IMG/VR virus record: IMGVR_UViG_3300014152_000001
Coordinates: 32,001-96,000 of that record
Length of the DNA stretch: 64,000 nucleotides
Source of the DNA: a virus
Direction: 5' to 3' (one strand)
This document shows, one piece after another, positions 889-62,850 of this stretch (positions are counted from its first letter, which is position 1; the number at the start of each line of letters is the position of its first letter). The notes beneath the pieces were generated by a model. That model saw nothing but the letters and a program-made list of their open reading frames with translations, made no database searches and was not told the origin of the DNA. The position numbers were made by a program, and so were the translations under genes.

Positions 889-1362
889 TTGAGCCAGAAT
901 ACACCGATTCCCTACTGTGACACTCAAGACCTAGTAAAGCAGTTGAATCTACAACAGTCGGCCACCGACCCCAATAAGTATGTCATCTATGCGATTCCGA
1001 CTTCAGTGGATGTAATCAATACCTTCGTGAAGCAGGCTAACGAGCAGACTACCATCCTCTTTGGAGACCTCACCAAGACCAATTCATATGGACTTGCCAA
1101 ACAATACGCGACTTGGAGAGCCGTTCTCAACATGATTGAAACGATGACTATCAGTTGGGTAATCTCTGGTATGCCTGTGACAGTAGGCGACATCAGCATC
1201 CAACGTCTCTCAGCCATGCAAGCGGCAACTGTCGAACTTAAGGAAAACACACTCAGAGAACTAGCGAGACTCTACATCATGCTATCCGATTTCAGTTACC
1301 CCAACAACTACCAGAGTCCAAGCCCGTTTGTGGATACGGGAGGTCAGATGTTCTTCAGTTAG
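889..1362 (+). CDS. Putative head-tail adaptor protein
   Basis: PYCDTQDL N-terminus, helical body and VTVGDISI motif typical of gp6/gp15-like adaptors; precedes a closure-like gene. Confidence 0.5.
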   Translation: MSQNTPIPYCDTQDLVKQLNLQQSATDPNKYVIYAIPTSVDVINTFVKQANEQTTILFGDLTKTNSYGLAKQYATWRAVLNMIETMTISWVISGMPVTVGDISIQRLSAMQAATVELKENTLRELARLYIMLSDFSYPNNYQSPSPFVDTGGQMFFS

Positions 1363-2957
1363 TGATAAAAATGGCTACAACAATAGATAATGGTTTCTTC
1401 GCTACAGTCAGTAATCAACAAAACGTCTTTTTTGTCAATGGACTTTATTGGGTTTTCTACTATGAGACAGGAAAACCACCCAATGAAGTAGGATACAAAA
1501 CAAGTTCAGATGGTGCATCATGGTCAGCCTATACAATGGCTATTGCCAATGTCGGTGGTGGCCAAGAAGAGGTAGATTTTGTCGTTGTTGGCACTACAAT
1601 TTATTACGCAACTTGCTTAGGCAATTACAGATATGGAAATCTTGATGTGGCTGGAACTATAACTTGGGCTATCCCAGAAACAAGTATAGGATTTCCTGCC
1701 TATGACTACCCAAGTATTGCGGTAGATAGTGGCGGCTTCATTTACATTGCCACACTTGGGACGAATGTGGTCAATGTTTACACAAACAGAACTGGAAGTT
1801 GGACACTAGATTTGACTGTTCCATTTGTTTCAGTGCCGGGAGCAAGATATAAGATTGTAGCCCTCACAGGTGGAAAGATGCTCCTTGTATATGGTGATTT
1901 CAACCCAAGCACTTGGTATACTCAAAGATTTGATGGAGCAAATTGGAGTGCTGGCTCAAACACTGTTTCTAATGAATACGATATGATATACAGTGAATTT
2001 ACGTCAAGCGGTGATGTAGCCTATGGTTCGGCTGTAAGAGAGAGTGGTGGCTCAATTGTAGGTATAGATTTTGTCAAGTATGATTACAATACCGATACTT
2101 GGAGTGCGACTGTGATTGATACCGGACAAACTTATCCATCTACAATTCTTATCAATTCTTCTAACACATTGCTAATAACCTATGCCACTACCTCTGGGCC
2201 TATCTCTTATACATTTTCTAACAATTATGGTGCATCATGGACACCCATTGCAACCATTGCTGTGTCACCAAGTCCATTTGACCTAACGGCTATCCTTACC
2301 AATGCTAATGAATTTTCTGTGGTCTTTGATGACCAAATTTCAATTTACATAACTCCCGACCCACCCATTCTCATAACAACAGCAATAATCATAACAGACT
2401 ATGCCTATGCCGAAGACAGCATCTCAATTAATAGAGGCACATTACCAGTCTGCGGAATGACCTCTGGAGCCTACCCTCTCTCGCCTATGGAGAAAGATTA
2501 CATAAATCTCGGCTACCAGCAGATAATAGACATAAGCGGGCTTCCTATCACCTATAAGACTATGAACATAATTGGTGAAGACGCATACGAGCATCCTATC
2601 ATCACATACACCAATAAAACCATCACAGCCTTCATCACCATCCTCAGAAACGATGAGTATGAGTATGTTGAACCGGGCTTCCTACCCAACCACTACGCCA
2701 GTATGTGGGTCTATTGCGTGACTCCACAAGTAGGAGACCATGTAGTATGGCAAGGCATTGAATGGGAAGTAAGGAACTCCATACCAAAGGTCATCGGTAA
2801 CGATACCGTTTACTATCAAACCGTCCTCAGAAGGGTGCTTGCTCGTGTGCCCCTCACAGGTGAAGTGGGAGATGGAACCGACTTAGGCGATACAACAGGG
2901 TCAGGCGGAACACTTCAGTCTGGCGGTGTCCAATACCCGCCAGAAGGAGACCCATAG
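1362..2957 (+). CDS. Fusion: BNR/Asp-box beta-propeller plus head-closure-like domain
   Basis: Asp-box motifs TSSDGASWS and SNNYGASWT; C-terminal PQVGDHVVWQGIEWEV...YYQTVLRR resembles SPP1 gp16-type closure proteins. Confidence 0.55.
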   Translation: MIKMATTIDNGFFATVSNQQNVFFVNGLYWVFYYETGKPPNEVGYKTSSDGASWSAYTMAIANVGGGQEEVDFVVVGTTIYYATCLGNYRYGNLDVAGTITWAIPETSIGFPAYDYPSIAVDSGGFIYIATLGTNVVNVYTNRTGSWTLDLTVPFVSVPGARYKIVALTGGKMLLVYGDFNPSTWYTQRFDGANWSAGSNTVSNEYDMIYSEFTSSGDVAYGSAVRESGGSIVGIDFVKYDYNTDTWSATVIDTGQTYPSTILINSSNTLLITYATTSGPISYTFSNNYGASWTPIATIAVSPSPFDLTAILTNANEFSVVFDDQISIYITPDPPILITTAIIITDYAYAEDSISINRGTLPVCGMTSGAYPLSPMEKDYINLGYQQIIDISGLPITYKTMNIIGEDAYEHPIITYTNKTITAFITILRNDEYEYVEPGFLPNHYASMWVYCVTPQVGDHVVWQGIEWEVRNSIPKVIGNDTVYYQTVLRRVLARVPLTGEVGDGTDLGDTTGSGGTLQSGGVQYPPEGDP

Positions 2958-3004: not shown

Positions 3005-3415
3005 ATGCCATATAAGAATCCAGAAGATAAGAAGGCTTGGTTTCAACGAAACAAAACCAGAATGGAAGAGAAGTCTCGTATTTGGAAAAGGACTCACAAA
3101 TCGTCAATCAACAAAAGCAATAATAAGAGTCGAAAGAAGTTACGTCTTAAAGTATTGATTCATTATTCTGGAACAGACCCGCCCCAATGCGTTAATCCTT
3201 TCAATTTGCATCTTCCTAACGACCCATTTCTCACAGACCTCAGAGTTCTCTCTATTGACCATATTAATGGTGGTGGACGAAAGGACAGAAGAGAAGGCAA
3301 AAGCGGTTCCTTGTTCTACTATTGGCTTCAGAGAAACAACTTCCCAAAGGGCTTTCAAGTGCTCTGTATGAATTGCCAGTATGTGAAGAGAGAACTTAAT
3401 AAGGAGCACAACTAA
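3005..3415 (+). CDS. HNH (His-Me finger) endonuclease
   Basis: SIDHINGGG...FQVLCMNCQ; basic N-terminus; own TATA. Confidence 0.8.
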   Translation: MPYKNPEDKKAWFQRNKTRMEEKSRIWKRTHKSSINKSNNKSRKKLRLKVLIHYSGTDPPQCVNPFNLHLPNDPFLTDLRVLSIDHINGGGRKDRREGKSGSLFYYWLQRNNFPKGFQVLCMNCQYVKRELNKEHN

Positions 3416-3427
3416 AGACAATATGAT

Positions 3428-3889
3428 ATGGTGCTGATTTCCCAACCGCCTTCAGGGATAGACCCCATCCTCTTCCTAGAGAACTTGCTAGAAGGTTTCG
3501 TCAAAGATGAGAAAGGAAACGATGTTCCCTTAGGAACCGTCTTTCCAAAGTCCATAAACAAACTACCGAGAGTGATAATCAACCAAAAGACAGAAGAGAT
3601 GAAATTCATCAGCATCCCTGCTATCAGACGCAGATGGACTACGCCCTTCACCCTAGAATGTTGGGCCTTGAGCGTGGCCCAAAGATACGCCATAAAGCAA
3701 AGCCTGATGGCTAGACTGGATACTCTTACTGGCAACCCCGGAGTGCAACTTGCAGACAACTACATCTATATGTGGTTCAAGATTCACGAGCCGAAAGACC
3801 AACCAAGCAGATTTGGGCAACCCATATTCACGATAGGTTTCGAGATTACACTGGTTTACGATACCTTAACAGGAAGTGTGCCTCCATGA
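3428..3889 (+). CDS. Putative tail-terminator / neck protein
   Basis: 153 aa, LPRVII motif, beta/alpha pattern, position after adaptor and closure genes. Confidence 0.45.
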   Translation: MVLISQPPSGIDPILFLENLLEGFVKDEKGNDVPLGTVFPKSINKLPRVIINQKTEEMKFISIPAIRRRWTTPFTLECWALSVAQRYAIKQSLMARLDTLTGNPGVQLADNYIYMWFKIHEPKDQPSRFGQPIFTIGFEITLVYDTLTGSVPP

Positions 3890-3942
3890 TAACAATTAGA
3901 ATCATGGTAAACCTTATATAGTCAAGTAACCATTACTTCCAT

Positions 3943-4332
3943 GTGTCAGCACAAAAGAGATACTACCAAAATCACAAAACCGCAATGCTACAGAAGAGTA
4001 AAGACTACTATTGGAGCCACAAACCAAAAATACAAAGGGAACAAAAAGAGTATCGGGAGCAAGTTCGTATACAAGTTTTTACTCATTATGGCGGCAATCC
4101 ACCCAAATGCGCTTGTTGTGGGGAGAGCAGAATCGAGTTTCTCACTATAGACCACATCAACAACGATGGTGCAAATCAACGGAGACGTATATGGGGCCAG
4201 AAAGTATCTGGTTTTGGATTCTATGCGTGGTTAGTTAGAATGAACTTTCCTGAAGGCTATCAAGTTTTATGTTTCAACTGCAACTGTGGCAGAGCACATA
4301 CTTTAAATAAGGTATGCCCTCATAAACAGTAG
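3943..4332 (+). CDS. HNH endonuclease
   Basis: CACCGE...TIDHINNDG...YQVLCFNCN. Confidence 0.8.
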   Translation: MSAQKRYYQNHKTAMLQKSKDYYWSHKPKIQREQKEYREQVRIQVFTHYGGNPPKCACCGESRIEFLTIDHINNDGANQRRRIWGQKVSGFGFYAWLVRMNFPEGYQVLCFNCNCGRAHTLNKVCPHKQ

Positions 4333-4333
4333 A

Positions 4334-4399
4334 ATGGTCACGCGAGAACAGGTTCCTATCGTCAATACAGGAGCATTATTCTATCCCGGAGTAGGTTGA
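4334..4399 (+). pseudogene. Orphan recoded copy of the major capsid protein N-terminus (21 aa mini-ORF)
   Basis: MVTREQVPIVNTGALFYPGVG* versus MCP MAMTREQFPIVNTGALFYPAL. Confidence 0.85.
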
Positions 4400-4866
4400 G
4401 ATTTACGCTTTCGTAAGGCTTCTTTCTTGAATTGACAATTCATACATAACACTTGGTATCCTTCTGGGTATCCTCTAACAAAGAGCCACCAATAGATGTT
4501 AATACCACCCCAATTCTTGGTCTTAGCCACTAATCTTCGCTCCTTTGCTCCATCATCATTGATATGGTCTATCGTAAGACAATCTACATCTGTAAACGGT
4601 TCTTTGTGCATTCCAAAAGGATTGGCACATTGAGACGGGTTAGTGCCAGAGTAATGAATCAACGTCTTAACTTTCATCTGATATTTGGCCTTCTTCCGAT
4701 TTGCGTTATACTTCTTTCTATGTTTTCTATAATATCCTCGTTCTCTATTATTTTTTGCAGACTGTTTTTTGTCGCACTCTTTACAGACCCGACTGTTGAT
4801 TCGCTTATGACATGGATACCAATTTTCATCGGCTAACAATATTCCACAGACACGGCAATTGGTCAT
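4381..4866 (-). CDS. HNH endonuclease with N-terminal zinc finger
   Basis: CRVCG..CKEC N-terminus; CANPF; TIDHINDDG...YQVLCMNCQ. Confidence 0.8.
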   Translation of the reverse strand: MTNCRVCGILLADENWYPCHKRINSRVCKECDKKQSAKNNRERGYYRKHRKKYNANRKKAKYQMKVKTLIHYSGTNPSQCANPFGMHKEPFTDVDCLTIDHINDDGAKERRLVAKTKNWGGINIYWWLFVRGYPEGYQVLCMNCQFKKEALRKRKSQPTPG

Positions 4867-4901
4867 ATATCAAACATATAGCCTCTGCCCTATTTAAGTG
4901 T

Positions 4902-5243
4902 TTATTGGAGAAGTTGGAGGTCGGAAACATCCAAAACGGCTGTCGCAAATTTCTTGAAATAGGGAGACATAACAATATCGCCCATCAAACCAAAGCGTTC
5001 TCCAAGTTCTCCTATTAAGACTAAGACATCTTCTTCGCTCACTATCTCATCTCCGCAATAGATAGCCAATGGTTCTTGGGTCTCTTTGCAAAATACAAAC
5101 TGATAATCATTTACCCTAGCGATGTGCTTAGTGTGTTTGCAGTCTTCGTGCCCCCCTTCAAATAGTAAAACATAATGGCCATCACTGGCTCTCGCTCCGG
5201 TGAGTTGCATGGGTATATACTGTATCCTACCCTTAATAAACAT
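4902..5243 (-). CDS. Hypothetical protein
   Basis: ORF; divergent from 5274. Confidence 0.45.
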   Translation of the reverse strand: MFIKGRIQYIPMQLTGARASDGHYVLLFEGGHEDCKHTKHIARVNDYQFVFCKETQEPLAIYCGDEIVSEEDVLVLIGELGERFGLMGDIVMSPYFKKFATAVLDVSDLQLLQ

Positions 5244-5273
5244 TTAAGTAGGTCGCGGAGAGAGGCTGTGGCT

Positions 5274-5636
5274 ATGGTATACAATGAAGAAATCAATCAC
5301 GAATGGGGCACTGAGGTCTATCCGTTAGTCCTCAAGCCAACGATGAAAGACCTTACGACAAGCAAAGGTAAGGTTTGGATAAACACTGAGAAAGAACGAG
5401 TAGAGGAATGGCAAGGAAAGCCGTGGGTCGTTGAAAAGAGCGACATCGCAGACCGTCTTGCCCAGAAGACAGGCATCAAGTCAAAGGGCACTCACTTCAA
5501 GATGAACATAGGCCAGAAGAAGGTGGGCCTGAGTGAGTTACTGGTCATCCGAGCCAGAGAAGACAGCCTAAACGACTTCACCAAGAAAGTCGAACTGATG
5601 GCCATCTCTCTCAAGAGTGGCAGAAGCCGAAAGTAA
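5274..5636 (+). CDS. Hypothetical protein
   Basis: Start re-placed at ATG 5274, downstream of a TTTAAGTA box. Confidence 0.55.
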   Translation: MVYNEEINHEWGTEVYPLVLKPTMKDLTTSKGKVWINTEKERVEEWQGKPWVVEKSDIADRLAQKTGIKSKGTHFKMNIGQKKVGLSELLVIRAREDSLNDFTKKVELMAISLKSGRSRK

Positions 5637-6428: not shown

Positions 6429-6857
6429 ATGGAATACAAAACTTCTGAAGAGAAGAGAGCCTACCAAGCAGACTACGCCAAAACACATAAGGAAGAGAAA
6501 CAGGCTTACGATAGGAAGTATTGGAAAATCCGTTATGCTAAAAATAGCAAGCAATACTTGGAAAACAGAGCGAAAGCGACAAGAGAACGGAAACTACTTG
6601 TCCTAAGTCATTACAGTAGTAATCCGCCCAAGTGTGCTTGTCCACCTTGCGGAGAGACCATTATCGAATTTCTCTCAATAGACCATATTATCCCTATTGG
6701 TAATAAAGCGAGAGACAATCAACTAGGCACGCGACACGGAAGCAATCTCTACGGCTGGCTCATTAGACACAACTTTCCAGAGGGCTTCCAAGTGCTCTGT
6801 ATGAATTGCAACTTCGCCAAAGGACACTACGATAAATGTCCTCACGAGAGACTGTAG
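6429..6857 (+). CDS. HNH endonuclease
   Basis: SIDHII...FQVLCMNCN..CPH. Confidence 0.8.
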   Translation: MEYKTSEEKRAYQADYAKTHKEEKQAYDRKYWKIRYAKNSKQYLENRAKATRERKLLVLSHYSSNPPKCACPPCGETIIEFLSIDHIIPIGNKARDNQLGTRHGSNLYGWLIRHNFPEGFQVLCMNCNFAKGHYDKCPHERL

Positions 6858-6979
6858 GTTTAAATAGTCCTAACCCCTATCTCTACTCATGGTAAAGGAC
6901 AGTCTCGGCCACGAAGTCGAGTTTCGTGACTATTGGGATTAGAAAAGCCCTTATATAGTCGGCTGTCCAATTAAGTCTC

Positions 6980-9325
6980 ATGAGCAGTGATGGTGCTAGA
7001 CGACCTGAAGAGGCTTTCGGCAAGACGACTCCATATGCCACCTGTCCAATCTGCCACGCCTTCATGCTAACTGAAGAGTATGACAAACACATGGCTCAAA
7101 ATCACTCACAAGAACAACGAAACAAATATACCCCAAAAGATGAAGAGAGTGGACCACAGGGCCACTTCTATGGTGATGTCTGGTCGAAGTATGAGGCCAC
7201 ACAAAGTCCGGCTTATCAACTCACCCAAGACGAGTTGGACAAGATTACTAATGAAGCGTGGGAAGGAGAAGGTTGTGAAGATTGTCGAAGCATAATTCAA
7301 AGCACCGAGATGGATAAGAAGGGCAACTATGCCATCTATCCTACATCAAGTCAAGTCGGACACATGAGCGACCTCTTCGGATACCAAACCGAGCCATCCA
7401 TGCCTACCACTGGTTATCTAGACCCAGAAGACCCCAAATGGCAACAGTCGGTTGAGCACATCCAAGAGCGACAGAAGACCCCGAAAGGGGTAGGAACCTT
7501 TGGGCCACAGTCTGGAATGACGAGAGACGAACCCACTCGTGATGAATGGCAAGTGACCAGTTATCTAGACAGCGTTGGTGTGACCTATATCCATAAGATG
7601 AAGTTAGGAGAACTAGACTCTACAACAGAGAAGCCAAAGGTTGAGTATGACCTCTATCTTCCAGACCTAGTTATGGCCATCGAAACCTCACCGGGTTGGC
7701 ATGAGGGTGGGCCACAAGCAGGAAGATTTCCACAAGTAATTGAGAATGACCACTTCAAAAAGAACTTTGCTGAAGAGCATGGAATAGACTTGGTGAGTTT
7801 CGACCCTGCTCAGGGAACGGAAAAGTTTATCAACGAAACCCTAGTGCCCAAGTTGAGGGCTGTGGGTGTGAATGCCTTTGAAGTGCCTACAACAAAGAAC
7901 GAAGAAAAGGAGAGGCTGGTATGGTGTATGGATTGTGGTGGTCTCTTTGATGACAAACCATCTCTGAACACACACTTCCAACAGACTGGACATAGTTCCG
8001 TAGGCGAAGGGACGGTAGAGAAGTATGAAGAGTTTGAGAAGGGCAATCCCTTCAATCAGCAATACATCTACCGAGAAGAAGACACGCTCCCAACATCTTG
8101 GCTTGCTCCGGTCTTCAAGTATGAGGGCTATGGGAAGGGCGAAGAGGAAGGTGGTGGAAGATTCCCAGACCCCGCTAACCATATAATGGGACCGGGAGTT
8201 GAGGTCAAGAAATGTCCTCATGGTAATGGTGTCTTCGCTACTCGTGACTTCAAAGAAGGAGAACTAATTTCAAGTTTCAAATCCCCATTTGTAAAGGAAC
8301 TTCCCGACCCTGCTCGTGGATGGGCCACTCTAAGAGTGGGAGACCTGTGGTGGGAAGAGCCAGCATCAGGAGAAGAGGACGAATGGGCCAACTTCTTAGA
8401 CCATGAGAAGTCGCCTAACTCTGTCTTTGTCAACTTCAACTTTGATGAAGGGACGGGAGACCTTATGACGACCCGACCTATCAAAACAGGAGAGGAAGTC
8501 TACATCGATTACGGTGCATACTCACCAGAGAACATAGGCGATGTCAGCGAAGACTTCGCCCCAGAAGACCTACCCCCAGAAGTTGTTCCTGCGGTCCCAG
8601 AGACGACAACTCTACCACCCACAGAGCCAGAAAAGGACTTAGGACAGGAAACAGCAGGATACGATTGGGATTACAACGTGAAGTATCGAGAAAAGCCTAT
8701 TCTTGAAGAGCAGTCTGGAATCAACCAGAATATTCCGACTGGAATATATTCCAGAGTGGAACCTCTTGCCTTTGACCAGTCCCAAAACGTGCCCAGATAC
8801 CCAGAGCGTGGGAAGGTCAATACCATAGAACAAGAGAGTGGTGGTGAAGAGTTGGCGGCTGATAGTCACCTGTTCCAAGAACAAGAGGAAGGTGGAGTCT
8901 ACCTAGCCTGTCCGAAATGCACTGGCGGTGGCGGCTTCTACAATAGGAGAGGCGATAAATGGATTACCTGCCCAATGTGTGGTGGAACGGGTAGCGGAGA
9001 GAAGCAGTTCGATTGGCCTGAAGACGAGAGAGACACCAAAAACGAGGGACGATGGGACGCACCAACACCAGACAAACAGAATGAAGCCGAGAAGATGGCC
9101 TACTATCAGTTGGCTGACGAAACAGGAGACTACATAATGAAAGCAAGAGAAGACGGCTCTCTCACAACACCAGAAGCCGATGCTCTAATGGCTCTACAAA
9201 CTCAAGCCAAAGAAGCAGTATTAGTAGACAATCTGGAGAAGGCACAAGAAATACTGGCTAAAATGGCAGAACTTGTTACGACTAAACTGGGAGTTCAAGA
9301 CCTAGACGTTGAAGGACAGCAGTGA
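6980..9325 (+). CDS. Multidomain protein: Zn fingers, Vsr/DUF559-like nuclease, SET methyltransferase domain, DnaJ-type Zn finger
   Basis: YDLYLPDLVMAIE..WH (PD-D/ExK); GNGVFATRDFKEGE, NFLDHEKSPN, PIKTGEEVYIDY (SET); CPKCTGGG / CPMCGGTG. Confidence 0.75.
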   Translation: MSSDGARRPEEAFGKTTPYATCPICHAFMLTEEYDKHMAQNHSQEQRNKYTPKDEESGPQGHFYGDVWSKYEATQSPAYQLTQDELDKITNEAWEGEGCEDCRSIIQSTEMDKKGNYAIYPTSSQVGHMSDLFGYQTEPSMPTTGYLDPEDPKWQQSVEHIQERQKTPKGVGTFGPQSGMTRDEPTRDEWQVTSYLDSVGVTYIHKMKLGELDSTTEKPKVEYDLYLPDLVMAIETSPGWHEGGPQAGRFPQVIENDHFKKNFAEEHGIDLVSFDPAQGTEKFINETLVPKLRAVGVNAFEVPTTKNEEKERLVWCMDCGGLFDDKPSLNTHFQQTGHSSVGEGTVEKYEEFEKGNPFNQQYIYREEDTLPTSWLAPVFKYEGYGKGEEEGGGRFPDPANHIMGPGVEVKKCPHGNGVFATRDFKEGELISSFKSPFVKELPDPARGWATLRVGDLWWEEPASGEEDEWANFLDHEKSPNSVFVNFNFDEGTGDLMTTRPIKTGEEVYIDYGAYSPENIGDVSEDFAPEDLPPEVVPAVPETTTLPPTEPEKDLGQETAGYDWDYNVKYREKPILEEQSGINQNIPTGIYSRVEPLAFDQSQNVPRYPERGKVNTIEQESGGEELAADSHLFQEQEEGGVYLACPKCTGGGGFYNRRGDKWITCPMCGGTGSGEKQFDWPEDERDTKNEGRWDAPTPDKQNEAEKMAYYQLADETGDYIMKAREDGSLTTPEADALMALQTQAKEAVLVDNLEKAQEILAKMAELVTTKLGVQDLDVEGQQ

Positions 9326-9488
9326 AATGCCAGCATTTCCGGTTATTGAAAAATCCCTCACAATCGCATGACCCTACCTTGTCAATCTTGTTGTAGAAGA
9401 CATTATGCCAAATGTTTGAGTATCGTTTAGACTTAACTCTGGCGAAGACCAAATCACCATCTTGTAAAATTTCAACTACCTCAGACAT
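9282..9488 (-). CDS. SWIM zinc-finger protein
   Basis: SCDCEGFFNNRKCWH (CxCx(n)CxH). Confidence 0.75.
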   Translation of the reverse strand: MSEVVEILQDGDLVFARVKSKRYSNIWHNVFYNKIDKVGSCDCEGFFNNRKCWHFTAVLQRLGLELPV

Positions 9489-9996
9489 TGTGCCATCTCC
9501 CATAATACTCTTCTAACAATGGTTCAATAACTTCTCTAAGATGTTTATACCATCGCCCAACCTTTGCCTCATAAGCCATTTGACAACTGCCACAACAAGT
9601 TTCCAAGTCATCTGTCTTTCTTGAGCCATTAATTATAGCCCTATACAAATCAGTTCCAACTCTATCTTTAGTTCCACCACCATTCTTGTGATTGATGGTG
9701 AGCACAATAGGATTGGTTTCTCCACAATAAACACAACTCTTTCCAACAATTTCAAGTGCTCTCATCTTCACTTTCCATGTATGTCTATCTTGATATTCGG
9801 GATGGTTCTTGTTGAAGTTCTTCACATAAATCTGTCGTTTAGGCCAATTTCGCTTTGTTCGATTCACAGTATCAACACTGGTGCACATTTTACACTCTTT
9901 ACGATACCAGATTTGACCTTTTACACCAATACCATTAATGTAAAAATCTTCAACATTCTTTGTTCTACCACACTTTGAGCAAACTCTAGAAGTCAT
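9481..9996 (-). CDS. HNH-type endonuclease (divergent)
   Basis: CSKCG..CKMC; CVYCGE..TINHKNGGG..CCGSCQ. Confidence 0.7.
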   Translation of the reverse strand: MTSRVCSKCGRTKNVEDFYINGIGVKGQIWYRKECKMCTSVDTVNRTKRNWPKRQIYVKNFNKNHPEYQDRHTWKVKMRALEIVGKSCVYCGETNPIVLTINHKNGGGTKDRVGTDLYRAIINGSRKTDDLETCCGSCQMAYEAKVGRWYKHLREVIEPLLEEYYGRWHNV

Positions 9997-10065
9997 CTAA
10001 CCATAGGTATAGTATTCACTACTATTTAAGGCTTTTTAGCCTTTTCCTGTAATACTTCGATGTCT

Positions 10066-10332
10066 TCACTTAGTCTCTGTCTTTTCTGGCTCTGGAATTC
10101 CAAGACCTTTTCGCCTCGCCTTCTTTTCCTCTTCGGTTTCAAAGGGCATGATGACTCCTGATTCATAGGTCAGCCCCTCTTCGGCATAACCGGATTCCGA
10201 AGTGACTGGGGTGATTTCGCCAAGTCCACCACCTGACTCTACGGTGATACACTCTGGTCCCATGTGCTTCAGGTCGTCTTCTGTGGTCTTGATAGCCACA
10301 TGATGCGTGAGACAGATTTTCTCTATTCCCAT
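10066..10332 (-). CDS. Hypothetical protein
   Basis: Start re-placed at MGIEKIC downstream of a TATA box. Confidence 0.5.
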   Translation of the reverse strand: MGIEKICLTHHVAIKTTEDDLKHMGPECITVESGGGLGEITPVTSESGYAEEGLTYESGVIMPFETEEEKKARRKGLGIPEPEKTETK

Positions 10333-10530: not shown

Positions 10531-10833
10531 TCACTTCAACCCCAGATTGCGTTTAATACCCGCGATATAGACATCCAACAGAGAAGAGAAGACATTAGTG
10601 AAGGCATAGACCTCATTAGTGAAGGCATAGACCTCATTCAACTCTTTATGTGACCAGAACTCGCACTCAGATTTATGGGCTATTGGAAAGAGATACCGCA
10701 AAAGAGTGGCGAGGGCTGGCCTTGGAATATACATTGTTTCCGTGTAAGTAGGGAGCATGATTTTGTCCTTCTCAAAGTCTCCTGTCTCAAGGTCTTTGAC
10801 GATTGCATCAATACACTTTTGGCAGAGTTTCAT
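10531..10833 (-). CDS. Hypothetical protein with an internal 7-aa duplication
   Basis: Coupled to the uS2 stop; NEVYAFT twice. Confidence 0.55.
   Translation of the reverse strand: MKLCQKCIDAIVKDLETGDFEKDKIMLPTYTETMYIPRPALATLLRYLFPIAHKSECEFWSHKELNEVYAFTNEVYAFTNVFSSLLDVYIAGIKRNLGLK
10593..10634. repeat. Perfect 21-bp tandem duplication
   Basis: CATTAGTGAAGGCATAGACCT x2. Confidence 0.95.
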
Positions 10834-11519
10834 TTTTCCTCATCCTCTTCCTCCTTCTCCGGCATCTTAGTCTCAAAGTCCTCAATAGTGAGGGGTGTTT
10901 TAGTCATGGCATCAAATATCTCCTCATCTGCCTTTATCTTCTCAGAGTGAAGCAAGATAGACCTAGCCAAGAGATAGAAGACCGTGGCTATGGCCTTTGC
11001 GCCAGTGTTGTTGGCCGGAATGCAGAGGTCCAAATCCTCGAAAGTGGCGTTGGTGTTGCAGATGGCAATAACGGGGATACCAACGCTTCCGGCCTCTTGC
11101 ATGGCCCTTCGGTCTCCTTTTATGGCTTCTCCTATCTTCTTCGGTATGCCATTGGTAGGGTCGGAGACAATCAACACATTTGCATCAATGTAGTATTTCG
11201 ATTGAGAGTTTGTAAGACAACCCGGCATGAAGCGATGAAAGACGGTGGGTATGAGAGTGGCCTTCTCAAATGCCGTAAGAGCGTTCTCAAATCTCGCATC
11301 AGTGGCATAGAGCACAGCACCTTCGGTCTTGACTATGAACTTACCAGCCGTGTCAAGCCGAGTAAGGATGGCGTTCACATCCAAAATGGGATTGCCACTT
11401 GGAGCGATGCTAGAGACATACTGAGCCATGTCTTTAGTAACTGCTCCCTTAATGCCTAAGTGTATACCAGTGGCCTTTAGTGGCTCTTCTGTAAGGGTTT
11501 TAGGTAGGATATGACTCAT
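10830..11519 (-). CDS. rps2: Ribosomal protein uS2 homologue (archaeal type, divergent)
   Basis: GIHLG...TKDM, RFMPGCLTN, LIVSDP, AMQEA..VGIPVIAICNT, DLCIPANN.G.KAIATVFYLLAR, IEDFETK; colinear with archaeal uS2. Confidence 0.9.
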   Translation of the reverse strand: MSHILPKTLTEEPLKATGIHLGIKGAVTKDMAQYVSSIAPSGNPILDVNAILTRLDTAGKFIVKTEGAVLYATDARFENALTAFEKATLIPTVFHRFMPGCLTNSQSKYYIDANVLIVSDPTNGIPKKIGEAIKGDRRAMQEAGSVGIPVIAICNTNATFEDLDLCIPANNTGAKAIATVFYLLARSILLHSEKIKADEEIFDAMTKTPLTIEDFETKMPEKEEEDEEK

Positions 11520-12745
11520 TGTTTGCTTACCCCTACACATCTAACCAACTCGTCCAGTATGGCCTCTACATCGTTGGTGTGAGTCTTAGCACTGCCAGCA
11601 GGTTTCAATCCACCCCCTTCCATGATGGCAGGATTGGCACTTCTGAAGGCCTTGCCAATGTGGATTGTGCTGTCCCTTCCGCCCCTACCAGAGACATGAA
11701 CCCCATACTTAGGAATGGTGTTAATGACGAACCAAGTCTTATGGTTGGTGTTGGTAAACTTACTGCATAGTGCAGAACCCATGTTCCATTTGCTACTGAT
11801 GATGGTCACACCGAAGTCTGGGTAGTCTAGTTGGGTGTAGTTGCCCCGCTTCTCTACATCTCCCTTGTCCTTTCTGTAGTTCACAGTGAGTTCCAGAAGC
11901 ATCTTAGTGTTGGAGTTCTTTGGTGTTGGAGTGGTCGTTGGAAATACAGTCGGCTCCCAGAAGAGGTCGCCCTCAATCTTTTCCTTGTTGACCATCGCAT
12001 AGAAGTCTAGCCAATTAGGAATCTTCTCCATCTCTTTCATGGCTTCATAGCAGATGGGCGGGGCTTTGTTGAATATCATCCTTCGAGGATTGTGAAGCAA
12101 TTGGGCGTAGAATGCAAGAATGCTCCAATCGTAACTACTGTTCAGACTCTTGGAAGCAAGCAATCCCCGCATAGAAGGATGCTTGTTGAGGAGTTCTTGG
12201 AAGAGAGGGCCACCTTCTTTGGTCCCAGTTGCTACATCTCCTTCTAACCCTAGCAAGGCCCACTTCTCCATGTTGACTACCGACCATCCCATCCTCTTGG
12301 CAAATGCGTAAGAGATGCCAGTAGTGCAATTCTCGGTGGATGACTCATAGTAGAAGAAGGGGAGATTGGGGAAAGGAAACTTCCCTTGGAGATTGGCTAA
12401 AGTCTTTGCATACTCTCCATAGGCTTCTGCGGTTTCAACCAAAAGGTCTGGCGGGTGGTTGTCCAAGATGATGACATTGATGCCACTGGCCAAAAATGCT
12501 ACTGCATAGTTCAGCATCTCTTGACCGCTTCCAAGGTCTAGAATGAAGACCGTTGCTGGCTTCAAGTCCATTATGTCTGAGACATTCTTATCCGTCATCC
12601 CGAAGACATCCCAATCTTGCCACATAATAGTGTGGGTAGCCTTGGGAGCATTCAGGGAGATGGCATTATGGATGATGCGACAGGCGCACATCCCATCGGT
12701 ATCTTCATCGCTGAAGATTACGGTATCCTGATTTGCTTTACTCAT
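11516..12745 (-). CDS. DHH/DHHA1 phosphoesterase (RecJ/GAN-like)
   Basis: DEDTDG, ILDLGS, ILDNH, GLEGDV, VSGRG, GGGLKPAG motifs. Confidence 0.8.
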   Translation of the reverse strand: MSKANQDTVIFSDEDTDGMCACRIIHNAISLNAPKATHTIMWQDWDVFGMTDKNVSDIMDLKPATVFILDLGSGQEMLNYAVAFLASGINVIILDNHPPDLLVETAEAYGEYAKTLANLQGKFPFPNLPFFYYESSTENCTTGISYAFAKRMGWSVVNMEKWALLGLEGDVATGTKEGGPLFQELLNKHPSMRGLLASKSLNSSYDWSILAFYAQLLHNPRRMIFNKAPPICYEAMKEMEKIPNWLDFYAMVNKEKIEGDLFWEPTVFPTTTPTPKNSNTKMLLELTVNYRKDKGDVEKRGNYTQLDYPDFGVTIISSKWNMGSALCSKFTNTNHKTWFVINTIPKYGVHVSGRGGRDSTIHIGKAFRSANPAIMEGGGLKPAGSAKTHTNDVEAILDELVRCVGVSKQ

Positions 12746-28373: not shown

Positions 28374-29324
28374 CTACAATGACCTTAGACCTGTTAATTG
28401 CACGACACTCTCCGGGTATGTGATAACCGGGGCATAGCGAGCAGTGATAACAATGTCTATCGAATCGAAAGTAGGTTGAGGCCAGACATCCACACTGATG
28501 GGTCTCTTCGTTGCGAAGTAACCCAACGGTGCATATGAGGCTGAATAGTTGCTACCAGCCGCGGCAAGGACGTATGCGCGTCCATCGAAGCCGCTGTTTG
28601 GTAACAGTGGAGCCTGTGGGATGTTCGGGGTGACTATCTGCTTCAGTCCATACAACTGAGGTGCTGAAACCACTGTTCCAGTTCCCTGAGCGTATACGGG
28701 CTGTCCGTAGAAGAGTAGGGCGGCAAACTGAGGTATCCTTGACAGGTCTTGATGAGCCATTGGGTTCATCGCAATCGTGTCAGGTTCCAAAGCAAGGTTC
28801 TGTATCACTTGCTTCGCCTGAGTTATGTCGTTAATCCCTATTGTTCCACCATACGCAGTTGTCGTCCCATCCATGAACACTGAAGCCCCTGTAACGGGCT
28901 GTGCGATGCCGTGACCAGCCGGGGCATTGAGTGCTTTCTCAACGTCTTGGTCGATGGTCATAACGACCCGTCTCGCGGCTCGTTTCAGTTGGTCTTCTAC
29001 AATGTTCACTATTTGGTCTTCAATCAACTCTCTAGTGACTCGGACTCTCATACCCACCTTGTAAGGTGTAACGGTAATCGAGTCGTAAGGTGTGAAGTCA
29101 GCCATAATCTCGGCTCCCTCTGCCGTCTTTCCTATGACGGCTGTAGCACGAGCACCCTTCTGCTTCGGTATCGAAGCAGTCGCTCCAACCTTGATGAAGA
29201 AGTCCTGAAGTAGAGGCTTCAATGCCAAGTTAGGCATTGTGAGTTCTACTATCCTCTTCGCCAGTGCTGGATAGAATAGAGCACCTGTGTTAACTATTGG
29301 GAACTGTTCACGAGTCATAGCCAT
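28374..29324 (-). CDS. Major capsid protein (HK97 fold)
   Basis: 316 aa; TAEGAEI, YKVGMRVRVTRELIED, IAMNP, LYGLKQIVTPNIP; last gene of the protease-scaffold-decoration operon. Confidence 0.85.
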   Translation of the reverse strand: MAMTREQFPIVNTGALFYPALAKRIVELTMPNLALKPLLQDFFIKVGATASIPKQKGARATAVIGKTAEGAEIMADFTPYDSITVTPYKVGMRVRVTRELIEDQIVNIVEDQLKRAARRVVMTIDQDVEKALNAPAGHGIAQPVTGASVFMDGTTTAYGGTIGINDITQAKQVIQNLALEPDTIAMNPMAHQDLSRIPQFAALLFYGQPVYAQGTGTVVSAPQLYGLKQIVTPNIPQAPLLPNSGFDGRAYVLAAAGSNYSASYAPLGYFATKRPISVDVWPQPTFDSIDIVITARYAPVITYPESVVQLTGLRSL

Positions 29325-42699: not shown

Positions 42700-43680
42700 G
42701 CTTTGCTATCCCACCGGGACTCCCTACCCCTTATAAGGCACTCCACATTTAACAATCCTTACTGCCTATATAAAGTTTGCAGTGGAAACATTGGTTGCCT
42801 ATATAAAGACTTGCGACTACCTTTATATAGACCATCTGGATGGGGCTTGCCGCGGGGCGCAAATGCAAACGGTGGCTTTATAAGGCCCACCTAGAGGGGA
42901 TACTGGAAGTGAGGTTGCCTATATAAAGGTGTCTGGGCGGCAGGGTGCTTCTATTGGAAACGCTCATTTACAATTTGCTCTGCCTTTGCTTTTTTGACAA
43001 TGAGATAGGGAAGCATAGCAATTAGTATACGTTTTATATCTCCTCGACTGTAAATTGTCAATTGATGCACAACTTTCCATTGTGGTTTCCAATCTTTTCT
43101 AATTGGTGAAGTGATATAACCTGCTCCTACAAATTCTTTGATAGTTTCTAGCACTTCTTTATTAGTAATGGACATATTGAGCCGAACATATCCCTTTTCT
43201 GTGCCTTTATAGTAGTTTGGATGAGAGTAGTTTGACTGAGCGATATATATGCTTCCTTCACCGTCAAAGAACCCCGAAACATATTGCCAAGATATAGGTG
43301 TGTTTGCCATATCCACTGAATACACTGCATCCTATATAAAGATTCTAGCATAGCGGCCTCACGAACCTCATAAGTCTTCCACTGCAAACTTACTGAGGCG
43401 CACTGGAAACGGGGCCGCAACAGCGGGCAATATGGCAGATGCTTCTATGCTCTTGTCTTATGTTGTGCAGGTGTTTCCATATAGAATAGAGGAGAGATAG
43501 TAAGACTACTACATGAGAGTGTCATCCCTACCCTTACCACATTACCGCAGTTGATAAGAATGCACGATTATGAGGTTCTTGGGGCTTGCTCTGTCGCGAC
43601 CTGCAAGAACTTCAAACCTTTATCCAGTCCTACTCTACTCTGTTTGCACTTCGTTTCCAGTGGAAGCATTGGTAAAGTTG
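42700..43680. other. Candidate replication origin with ORB-like boxes and repeated GCCTATATAAAG motifs
   Basis: GTTTGCAGTGGAAACATTGG (42775), GTTTCCAGTGGAAGCATTGG (43653), inverted copies at 43376 and 43401. Confidence 0.5.
42951..43310 (-). CDS. Single-motif LAGLIDADG endonuclease
   Basis: YVSGFFDGEGSI, SITNKEVL, MLPYLIVKK. Confidence 0.88.
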   Translation of the reverse strand: MANTPISWQYVSGFFDGEGSIYIAQSNYSHPNYYKGTEKGYVRLNMSITNKEVLETIKEFVGAGYITSPIRKDWKPQWKVVHQLTIYSRGDIKRILIAMLPYLIVKKAKAEQIVNERFQ

Positions 43681-44116
43681 GGGCTGTGGGCTGAGATTGA
43701 ACTGGATTAGAGGAAAGGGACTGAGGGGAAGAGGGATGGCCCTTAAACTCATGGTTTTCATACATCTTTATCCTGTTGCAGTTGAAACAGAGGGTTTGAT
43801 AGCCAACGGGGAAGCCATGACGCTTTAGCCATCTATAGATGGCCTTGCCTCTCGTCTTCTTGTCGCCACGCCTCTGTTCATTCCCATTTCCATTAATATG
43901 GTCAGCAAGAAGGCAACGATGGTCAGCACAGCCACATTTGACGCAAGCCAACCTACCATTACCGTAATAGGCCAACACTTCTAGTTTGAGGGCTAAGTCT
44001 CGTCTCTTTACGCCTTCAGAGAAACAACTTTTACATATGCGGTCTGAGCATTTCATACGGGAGCCTGCCCAAGTCTCAGGAGTCAATTCAGTCCCACAAT
44101 CACGACAGAAAGGCAT
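43568..44116 (-). CDS. HNH endonuclease with N-terminal Zn finger
   Basis: CRDCG..CKSC; ADHINGNG...YQTLCFNCN. Confidence 0.8.
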   Translation of the reverse strand: MPFCRDCGTELTPETWAGSRMKCSDRICKSCFSEGVKRRDLALKLEVLAYYGNGRLACVKCGCADHRCLLADHINGNGNEQRRGDKKTRGKAIYRWLKRHGFPVGYQTLCFNCNRIKMYENHEFKGHPSSPQSLSSNPVQSQPTAPTLPMLPLETKCKQSRVGLDKGLKFLQVATEQAPRTS

Positions 44117-57650: not shown

Positions 57651-57758
57651 ATGTCGCAAGAAGATAACGAACTCGAAGAGGATGAGGACATGGATTCGGA
57701 CTTCGATGGAGAAAGTGAGGACATCGGACAAGATAACAAAACGGATGAGGAATTATAA
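57651..57758 (+). CDS. 35 aa hyper-acidic peptide
   Basis: 18 of 35 residues are D/E; own CTTATAAA promoter; TAATG-coupled to the HNH gene. Confidence 0.6.
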   Translation: MSQEDNELEEDEDMDSDFDGESEDIGQDNKTDEEL

Positions 57759-58240
57759 TGCCTAGTGAATACAAGTATCGCTGTTGCATCCGTTGTGGCG
57801 TTAAACTAACGCCAAGCACTTGGTTTCCTAGTTTCAAACCTAGATACCTATATGTTTGCAAATCTTGTTCCAGTAAAGAGCGTGTAGTATACTATAGAAA
57901 GTGGGCCACTACACACAAATCTATAGCAAAAGAACGAACCAAAAAAACTAGAGATACTCTCAAACTTGAGACATTGCTCAACTATTCGCTAACTTGGCCA
58001 CCGCAATGTGCCAATCCATTCAGAGAGCATCCAGTTTGTGTGCCATACACAACCATTGAGGCTCTTTCCATTGACCATATCAATGGTGGTGGAGATAGAG
58101 AAAGAAGACTGTTGGTTGGGAGAAGAGGGGGCGGAGTCAATTTCTATTGGAAATTGAAACAACGTGGGTATCCAAAGGGATACCAAATCTTATGTATGAA
58201 TTGTCAATTCATCAAAAGTTATAGGGTGAACGGCTCTTGA
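57758..58240 (+). CDS. HNH endonuclease with N-terminal Zn finger
   Basis: CIRCG..CKSC; CANPF; SIDHINGGG...YQILCMNCQ. Confidence 0.8.
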   Translation: MPSEYKYRCCIRCGVKLTPSTWFPSFKPRYLYVCKSCSSKERVVYYRKWATTHKSIAKERTKKTRDTLKLETLLNYSLTWPPQCANPFREHPVCVPYTTIEALSIDHINGGGDRERRLLVGRRGGGVNFYWKLKQRGYPKGYQILCMNCQFIKSYRVNGS

Positions 58241-61880: not shown

Positions 61881-62387
61881 TTGGATAGTAGTATCTTGAT
61901 AATCTGTCATGTAGATGGACTGTGCGAACCTAATCGGTATGGAGGGGTTGCCACCTATGGAGTGGTTATCCGAAAGGAAGACGGAGAACTCGTCTTCATG
62001 GGTAGTGGAATGATAGGAGAGGGCAAAGGTATGTCCAATCAGGTCGCGGAATACTATGCTGTAATAGGTGCGCTCAAGAGTTTGATTGACCACTATCTGG
62101 CCAATGAAGAGGTCATAATCTACACCGACTCCAAACTGGTAGCGGAGCAGATGAATGGCCATTGGAAGGCCGTAAGCGGAGTCTACTTGCCCTACTTCCT
62201 TAAGACCAGAGACTATCAAACCCAGTTCAGCAATCTGAAATTCCAATGGATAAGCCGAAACCTTAATAAAGAAGCAGATTCTCTTACTAGGCAAGTATAT
62301 GAAGAGTATTGCAAAGCAACTGGAAGACCTGTCATATATGGAGAGCATGAAAAAATGCCGAGATTGTGGAACAGAACTCACAAATGA
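61881..62387 (+). CDS. rnhA: Ribonuclease HI
   Basis: HVDG, SNQVAEYYA, YTDSKLV..QMNG.W, WISRNLNKEAD. Confidence 0.9.
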   Translation: MDSSILIICHVDGLCEPNRYGGVATYGVVIRKEDGELVFMGSGMIGEGKGMSNQVAEYYAVIGALKSLIDHYLANEEVIIYTDSKLVAEQMNGHWKAVSGVYLPYFLKTRDYQTQFSNLKFQWISRNLNKEADSLTRQVYEEYCKATGRPVIYGEHEKMPRLWNRTHK

Positions 62388-62850
62388 AAATTGGTCTTTC
62401 TCTCGACAAAGGAATAAATCTTTCTATTGTCGAAACTGTTGCAAAGTTCGCCAACATCAATGGCGCATCAAAAACACTACTCACGAAAGAGAATACGGAA
62501 AGAAATGGAGAGCAACACATAAGCAACAGAGAAGAGATTATGCTAAAACCATTGGACAAGAGAATAAATTGGAAGTTCTTCGCCATTACTCTGGCAATGT
62601 CGTCATCCCATTTTGTGCTTGTTGCAAAGAGAATCGGATTGAGTTCCTCACACTTGACCATATCAAAGATAACGGCTATCAAGAGACTGTTTCCCATCGA
62701 AAGACTCTCTATTTTTACCTCATTAAACAAGCCTTTCCAGAGGGCTATCAAGTTCTTTGTTGGAATTGCAATGAAGCAAAGGCGCACTACGGATACTGCC
62801 CACACCAAACACATAAATATACCCAGAGGCGAGAACTCCGAGGCAGATAG
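62347..62850 (+). CDS. HNH endonuclease with N-terminal Zn finger
   Basis: MKKCRDCG..CRNC; TLDHIKDNG...YQVLCWNCN..CPH. Confidence 0.8.
   Translation: MKKCRDCGTELTNENWSFSRQRNKSFYCRNCCKVRQHQWRIKNTTHEREYGKKWRATHKQQRRDYAKTIGQENKLEVLRHYSGNVVIPFCACCKENRIEFLTLDHIKDNGYQETVSHRKTLYFYLIKQAFPEGYQVLCWNCNEAKAHYGYCPHQTHKYTQRRELRGR

Follow-up and report, generated by a model that had tools for sequence, protein, structure and literature searches.

The window, the whole 64,000-nucleotide stretch of viral DNA that was analyzed, contains at positions 4334–4399 (+) an open reading frame of 21 codons, running from ATG to TGA, which is a paralogue of the tip of the N-terminal arm (N-arm) of the major capsid protein (MCP) and is referred to here as the micro-gene. 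When the window was searched with the MCP by tblastn, the micro-gene was the sole second match (20 aa, E 4.9e-5) and no other MCP-like piece was returned. Residues 3–18 equal MCP residues 4–19 at 15 of 16 positions, with one V/F mismatch, confirming the resemblance to the capsid N-terminus on which the first-pass annotation was built. In the full genome, which comprises 105,748 bp with a 124-bp terminal overlap, the motif occurs only twice, in the micro-gene and in the MCP gene. The micro-gene is not a full HK97-fold MCP (N-arm, E-loop, spine helix, P and A domains), as it matches MCP residues 3–22 only; both the significant similarity and the constraint on the same residues identify it as a paralogue of the N-arm tip. 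The MCP segment encoding residues 4–19 (29268–29315, −) and the micro-gene are alike at 36 of 48 bases, and 10 of the 15 identical residues are specified by different codons, so the synonymous recoding noticed earlier was also borne out. The pS between the micro-gene and the MCP of its own genome was 0.90, indicating that recent gene conversion does not account for the common residues.

The MCP gene (28374–29324, −) encodes a 316-aa protein of the HK97 type (Pfam PF25209, E 1.8e-10; PF05065, E 2.8e-9). It is located in the head module, downstream of the genes for a prohead protease, a coiled-coil scaffold and a 143-aa protein, and it starts 24.9 kb from the micro-gene on the other strand, matching the distance of about 25 kb given by the first pass. 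Alignment of 15 relatives revealed that R5, E6, F8, G14, A15, F17 and P19 of the MCP N-terminus are invariant. The AF2 model of the MCP made from 15 close relatives was unusable (pLDDT 33), and a profile search of the PDB produced only a marginal HK97-like match (E 0.5). There was no match to the MCP in the phage collection, and the MCP profile search of genome contigs found no relative. Degenerate DNA scans of viral contigs recovered only MCP genes, known mini-ORFs and chance matches, with no Rosetta-stone fusion of the motif among them. By hhalign against the MCP, the genes at 4902–5243 and 5175–5636 obtained probabilities of 0.1% and 0.6%, respectively, and no relation of the former, a 113-aa gene, to the MCP was detected.

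The ATG of the micro-gene lies 1 nt past the TAG of an HNH ORF (3943–4332, +), as had been reported for this start, and its 3' end overlaps the end of a convergent HNH ORF (4381–4866, −). A Shine-Dalgarno motif is absent at the micro-gene. Further upstream is a tail terminator gene (3428–3889, +; 153 aa), the AF2 model of which (pLDDT 77) matched T5 p142, lambda gpU and the HFTV1 tail (9fkb_Pa, TM 0.68) in Foldseek. Orthologues of the terminator gene, taken from viral and metagenome contigs, were present in L026, L028, L113, L119, L120 and L122. We found seven distinct mini-ORFs of 19–36 codons directly after the terminator gene (window, L028/L112, L026/L117, L113, L120, L119/L123 and L122), and the terminator proteins of these relatives are 55–93% identical to that of the window. 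Five of the lineages (L026/L117, L113, L119/L123, L120 and L122) have no upstream HNH gene.

In most relatives the start of the mini-ORF overlaps the terminator stop. L026, which has no HNH gene at all, contains this overlap as ATGA, and its mini-ORF ends at the 3' end of a convergent gene of 105 aa. L028 contains one HNH gene downstream of the mini-ORF, which is in the opposite orientation and different from that of the window. All seven lineages have an intact start and frame. Between the conserved FYP and the stop there are 1 to 13 codons, and the similarity to the MCP extends by two more residues in the two lineages that are most distant. The mini-ORF is absent from L118 and from the distant G007 lineage and is, given these two, not universally required. 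A programmed frameshift from the terminator gene into the mini-ORF was rejected, as the relative frame varies among lineages and the window contains no slippery site.

Several other genes in this part of the window were also noted. The gene at 1362–2957 (+) encodes a 531-aa protein whose conserved C-terminal part weakly resembles head-closure protein Hc1 (PHROG 161, E 0.007). Its N-terminal part is fully different among relatives (the protein has 459 aa in L028 and 687 aa in L026), and the product may be a neck protein with exchangeable appendage domains. A 17-codon ORF at 6890–6943 (+) contains an EFxDYW motif that also occurs in the C-terminal region of the scaffold; the ORF is conserved in neither L028 nor L026, suggesting that the resemblance is probably due to chance. 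A virus-encoded ribosomal protein uS2 was identified at 10830–11540 (−) (Pfam Ribosomal_S2, E 2e-16).

HNH cassettes flanking the micro-gene

The upstream HNH ORF (3943–4332, +) encodes a putative endonuclease of 129 aa that is HNH-like by its similarity to PHROG 2255 (E 3.4e-5). It does not reach the Pfam HNH cut-off, and its DH...N...CxxC motif is common to 12 paralogues. Viral contigs contain 117 relatives of it, and among the 80 matches listed the identity is 36–57%. Comparison with the empty sites of L026 and L028 showed that homology breaks at 3895|3896 and resumes at 4344, the empty site in L026 being 8474|8475. Directly before the break lies ATGATAACAA (3886–3895, +), the stranded original start of the micro-gene, which is identical to the micro-gene start in L026 and L028 and still gives the terminator gene its TGA stop. 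Positions 4334–4343 are a recoded second copy of these start bases. The stranded start indicates that the cassette was inserted into a pre-existing mini-ORF.

We found that the cassette site is empty in L026, L028, L113, L119, L120 and L122 and filled in the window, in L114–L116 and in contigs of runs X6 and X10. The segment 3886–4350 is 100% identical to L115 (465 nt), whose adjoining terminator gene is only 73.6% identical to that of the window. Other peat metagenome contigs contain the same cassette in an L026-type background, identical up to 4350; past this point they contain an L026-type mini-ORF and no second HNH gene. Since identity extends to 4350 and is then replaced by host background, the mobile unit was delimited to about 3896–4350 (+), containing its own TATA box (~3917–3925), the HNH ORF and the recoded codons 1–6 of the micro-gene (4334–4350). 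The unit has the HNH motif, is present or absent at a precise site and is far more alike between genomes than are its flanks, as is typical of a homing cassette. It is laterally mobile and has spread recently.

The second HNH ORF (4381–4866, −; 161 aa) is a paralogue of the other HNH genes and separates the micro-gene from the convergent gene, and its last codons overlap the micro-gene 3' end. It is absent at this site in L026, has a TATA-like box 32 nt upstream and is part of a second cassette of the same design that spans about 4400–4901. The native downstream neighbor of the micro-gene, the convergent 113-aa gene (4902–5243, −), has orthologues at 8524–8841 in L026 and at 9076–9384 in L028, and its functional 3' end, at about 4902–4916, is recoded. 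Insertion of the second HNH gene left AGTAGGTTGA (4390–4399), a 10-nt remnant of the old 3' end of this gene, which is shared with L026 (8535–8544), where it codes for the C-terminal residues of the 105-aa gene product. Both the mini-ORF and the HNH gene now end in codons provided by the remnant. The micro-gene is thus composed of codons 1–6 from the upstream cassette, codons 7–18 from the resident mini-ORF, and a last three codons and stop from the remnant of its neighbor's old 3' end. Its frame and start were kept through two independent HNH insertions.

Recoded duplicated termini were observed at two further sites, in L028 and at window positions 9481–10070. The HNH gene of L028 (8591–9118) left the former C-terminal codons of the convergent 102-aa gene stranded as a remnant beside the mini-ORF (8518–8560) and supplies a new C-terminus. 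The ORF at 9481–10070 (−) encodes a 171-aa HNH-like protein with a CxxC...NH...CxxC motif and no Pfam match; it is absent at this site in L028 and is flanked by a stranded old 5' end (~10026–10070) and by a new, recoded 5' end that belongs to the downstream gene. The whole genome contains 12 paralogous HNH genes of 129–183 aa, an unusually heavy load, each of which is preceded by a TATA-like box; those in the window lie at 3005–3415, 3943–4332, 4381–4866, 6429–6857, 43568–44116, 57758–58240 and 62299–62850. The comparison of these sites suggests that the HNH cassettes of this lineage act as "polite" invaders, which would insert into gene termini and supply recoded termini and promoters, and this proposal is better supported than the portal-vertex role considered below.

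We also inspected the MCP loci of relatives for HNH genes, which the first-pass annotation had expected to adjoin MCP genes. No HNH gene adjoined or lay inside the MCP gene in any of 25 loci, and the nearest was located between the genes for the protease and the scaffold. The 5' end of the cassette-free mini-ORF and the MCP 5' end of several relatives (L012 10001–10040 vs. L028 8459–8500) share a core of 16 of 18 bases at the HNH insertion point, suggesting that an endonuclease targeting the mini-ORF might also cut some MCP genes.

Selection and expression signals

Selection on the mini-ORF was analyzed over the 15–16 codons that align unambiguously among the seven distinct sequences; the variable middle part aligns uncertainly. 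For individual pairs, pS was 0.42–0.96, which is largely saturated, and pN was 0.06–0.36. Three phylogenetically independent pairs together contained 22.5 synonymous differences at 33.3 sites vs. 14.5 non-synonymous differences at 101.7 sites (pS 0.67 vs. pN 0.14; Fisher P 1.9e-8). Between the window and L028 alone there were 11 synonymous differences at 11.5 sites and 2 non-synonymous differences at 33.5 sites. The numbers of variable columns at the first, second and third codon positions were 9, 6 and 15, respectively. The residues invariant among the mini-ORFs are R, E, a V, G, A, F and P, of which R, E, G, A, F and P coincide with the invariant MCP residues R5, E6, G14, A15, F17 and P19. 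In genome G004 (L016 3836–3859, L123 1376–1486), both the MCP N-terminus and the mini-ORF have RESF, and most relatives have REQF or REQV; this is a possible single case of covariation, too little for a test.

By this substitution pattern, purifying selection acts on the coding sequence of the mini-ORF in this lineage of archaeal-type tailed viruses, and the comparison of synonymous and non-synonymous changes across relatives, which had been put forward as a check on the first-pass reading, thus came out in favor of conservation. We hold the anatomy of the micro-gene and its status as a selected coding gene to be very probable. Micro-genes of fewer than 30 codons are routinely missed by gene callers, and the comparative evidence by itself gives this one unusually good support.

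A TATA-like octamer occurs 81 times in the genome, with a peak at 31–34 nt upstream of gene starts. Judged by this distribution, the pattern is that of archaeal promoters with leaderless mRNAs. The octamer of the micro-gene (4301–4308, +) is embedded in the 3'-terminal part of the HNH gene, 33 nt upstream of the ATG; this is the modal offset of the genome's genes, and the probability of an octamer at that offset by chance is about 0.0015. The cassette of the HNH gene at 3005–3415, which lies between the Hc1-like gene and the tail terminator gene, presents the same arrangement, with an octamer inside the HNH 3' end (3395–3402) that is 33 nt before the terminator ATG; this HNH gene seems to supply a putative promoter to the gene it uncouples.

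No TATA box precedes the mini-ORF in the HNH-free relatives, which would then rely on the start-stop overlap for mini-ORF expression. This overlap of the mini-ORF start with the terminator stop suggests that in most relatives the mini-ORF is probably translated by termination-reinitiation. Given a TATA box at 33 nt in the cassette and none in the HNH-free relatives, the cassette appears to compensate for the coupling that it destroys. Taken with the selection analysis, these signals point to a genuine translated micro-gene.

Candidate roles of the peptide

In the explanation that we favor, the micro-gene would be an old partial duplicate of the 5' end of an HK97-type capsid gene, native to the locus downstream of the tail terminator gene, and the HNH genes would be newcomers. 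Two free-standing HNH cassettes would have invaded both junctions flanking it, the upstream one landing within codons 1–3 and bringing recoded codons 1–6 and a TATA box at the canonical distance, so that in the window genome the micro-gene is predicted to be intact and independently transcribed. The peptide would be a free N-arm tip with exactly the invariant residues of the MCP, and it may bind the partner on which that tip docks. In well-characterized tailed phages, this partner is the scaffolding protein in procapsids and the adjacent capsid subunit or its N-arm in mature shells. By occupying or competing for N-arm docking sites in head assembly or maturation, a free N-arm tip could cap sites, modulate assembly or modulate scaffold release. 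We consider this composite account, the micro-gene together with the N-arm mechanism, to be evenly balanced between right and wrong.

For the mechanistic part, the argument is that constraint on the same residues as in the MCP suggests that the peptide probably binds what the N-arm tip binds. Action through such a shared partner is a tentative proposal, to which we give rather less than even weight. The location of the micro-gene in the neck/tail module is not accounted for by a role in head assembly, and tight dosing would be needed for a peptide in competition with the capsid protein of its own virus. A complex prediction with the G004 MCP, the scaffold and the 36-aa peptide of that genome scored 0.00, a result that was counted neither way. 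The expressed capsid-mimic peptide, one of the two readings offered by the first-pass annotation, gains support from the conservation of the mini-ORF, the purifying selection, the survival of two HNH insertions and the promoter-like TATA box.

One variant that would fit the position in the neck/tail module is that the peptide is a stoichiometric virion component, made with the terminator, which would fill the N-arm docking sites left vacant at the portal vertex, where a penton is missing. We consider this role unlikely, although it fares better than the alternatives that follow.

In bacteria, several abortive-infection systems are activated by capsid proteins or by short peptides of the capsid, an example being the Gol peptide of T4 gp23 with Lit. 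The peptide, which reproduces the most conserved N-terminal residues of the MCP, could thus be a defense decoy that mimics the capsid part read by a host immune sensor and soaks up or desensitizes that sensor. However, such a sensor would be expected to be set off, not blocked, by a free copy of the epitope that activates it, and coupling of translation to a late structural gene is more in line with a structural role than with early counter-defense. The host is uncultured and probably archaeal, and we know of no capsid-sensing system in it. A decoy is therefore improbable in our view.

The overlap of the mini-ORF start with the terminator stop in most relatives, and the convergent overlap with the downstream 3' end in L026, raise the possibility of a cis-regulatory peptide, in which mini-ORF translation or a nascent-chain effect would tune the neighboring genes and the free peptide would have no role. 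This reading is disfavored by the constrained residues, which are those of the MCP N-arm and point to a common binding partner, by the variable FYP-to-stop distance (1 to 13 codons) and by retention of the ORF after HNH insertions uncoupled both neighbors, and we regard it as quite improbable. Even less probable is an untranslated relic, an old partial duplication of the capsid 5' end that decays slowly and is conserved by chance or by overlapping signals. The ORF is indeed very short and without a Shine-Dalgarno motif, was lost in L118, and varies by lineage in length and C-terminal tail; however, a slowly decaying relic does not fit the difference between pS and pN (0.67 vs. 0.14, P 1.9e-8), the variability of nearly all third positions, a start and frame that are intact in all seven lineages, restoration of the start after HNH insertion and a TATA box at the canonical offset. 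The decoy, cis-regulatory and relic readings are each less likely than N-arm mimicry.

The other reading of the first-pass annotation, that an HNH cassette targeting the 5' end of a related virus's capsid gene moved ectopically and dragged its first codons here as a rescue fragment, is very improbable: the mini-ORF does lie between two HNH genes with codons unlike those of the resident MCP, and the HNH cassettes of this virus do carry recoded gene termini, but five lineages that lack the upstream HNH gene have the mini-ORF at the same site, only codons 1–6 belong to the mobile tract, with host background from 4351, none of the 25 MCP loci has an HNH gene adjoining or inside the MCP gene, and the stranded start at 3886–3895 marks insertion into a pre-existing mini-ORF. 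What stands of this reading is the recoded piece carried by the cassette, which replaces codons 1–6 of the resident mini-ORF and not of the MCP. The first-pass annotation had also named a pair of findings that would speak against its readings, HNH genes never adjoining MCP genes together with a mini-ORF that is not conserved; the former was observed (0 of 25 MCP loci), and the latter was not, the mini-ORF being conserved in seven lineages.

Comparison with known systems

We know of no description of recoded termini and downstream promoters as a regular feature of homing cassettes. By their sequence features, the HNH cassettes appear ordinary in kind, that is, free-standing homing endonuclease genes with putative cleavage specificity (PMC2988022, PMC10448857). 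Free-standing homing endonucleases of T4-like phages include mobE and the seg genes (PMC2988022, PMC2790892), and nuclease genes are found at exchange boundaries (PMC10448857). Like the T4-type mobE and seg cassettes, the HNH genes of this virus are located between conserved genes or at their ends, are present or absent at fixed sites and have flanks that are less alike. Unlike the T4-type cassettes, they lie inside the terminal codons of overlapping genes and bring a recoded substitute terminus, in two cases with a TATA box for the downstream gene. The locus offers a natural experiment on homing endonucleases in archaeal-type viruses, with the same cassette in diverged genomes, borders defined to the base pair, a recoded target and a built-in promoter, and it permits direct tests of target-site immunity and of what insertion into overlapping genes costs.

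For the micro-gene itself, no described counterpart was found, and the nearest analogue is CpmB of SaPI1. To our knowledge, CpmB is the only well-studied case of a copied assembly motif; it is encoded by a parasite, and the side of the contact that it copies is the opposite one. If the proposed role is true, a virus that keeps a free copy of the N-arm tip of its own capsid protein would be a new player in HK97-type head assembly.

In SPP1, the MCP N-terminus (residues 2–28) binds the scaffold in the procapsid, and it then stretches out as the N-arm, in antiparallel pairing with an N-arm of the next capsomer (PMC6813328). Like the N-arm of SPP1 gp13 (PMC6813328), the micro-gene product is predicted to be extended and is rich in proline and aromatic residues, and it is paralogous to the first ~18–19 residues of its own MCP, with the same invariant residues. 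Unlike an HK97-fold MCP, it lacks the rest of the fold and cannot be a capsid subunit, and its gene is part of the neck/tail module, 25 kb from that of the MCP.

In phage 80alpha, the capsid N-arm is bound by the C-terminus of the scaffold, and CpmB of SaPI1 competes by means of a C-terminal motif that it has in common with the scaffold (PMC5644958). CpmB is a 72-residue dimer from a parasitic island that copies the scaffold side, whereas the micro-gene product has 19–36 residues, copies the capsid side, is encoded by the virus at its own conserved locus rather than by a parasite or competitor, and is conserved in the lineage; it is known from sequence, and its CpmB-like binding is only predicted. 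The two have in common a terminal docking motif: in both SaPI1 CpmB (PMC5644958) and the micro-gene product, a terminal head-assembly motif is repeated in a separately encoded polypeptide, which can address the same docking site in the former and may do so in the latter.
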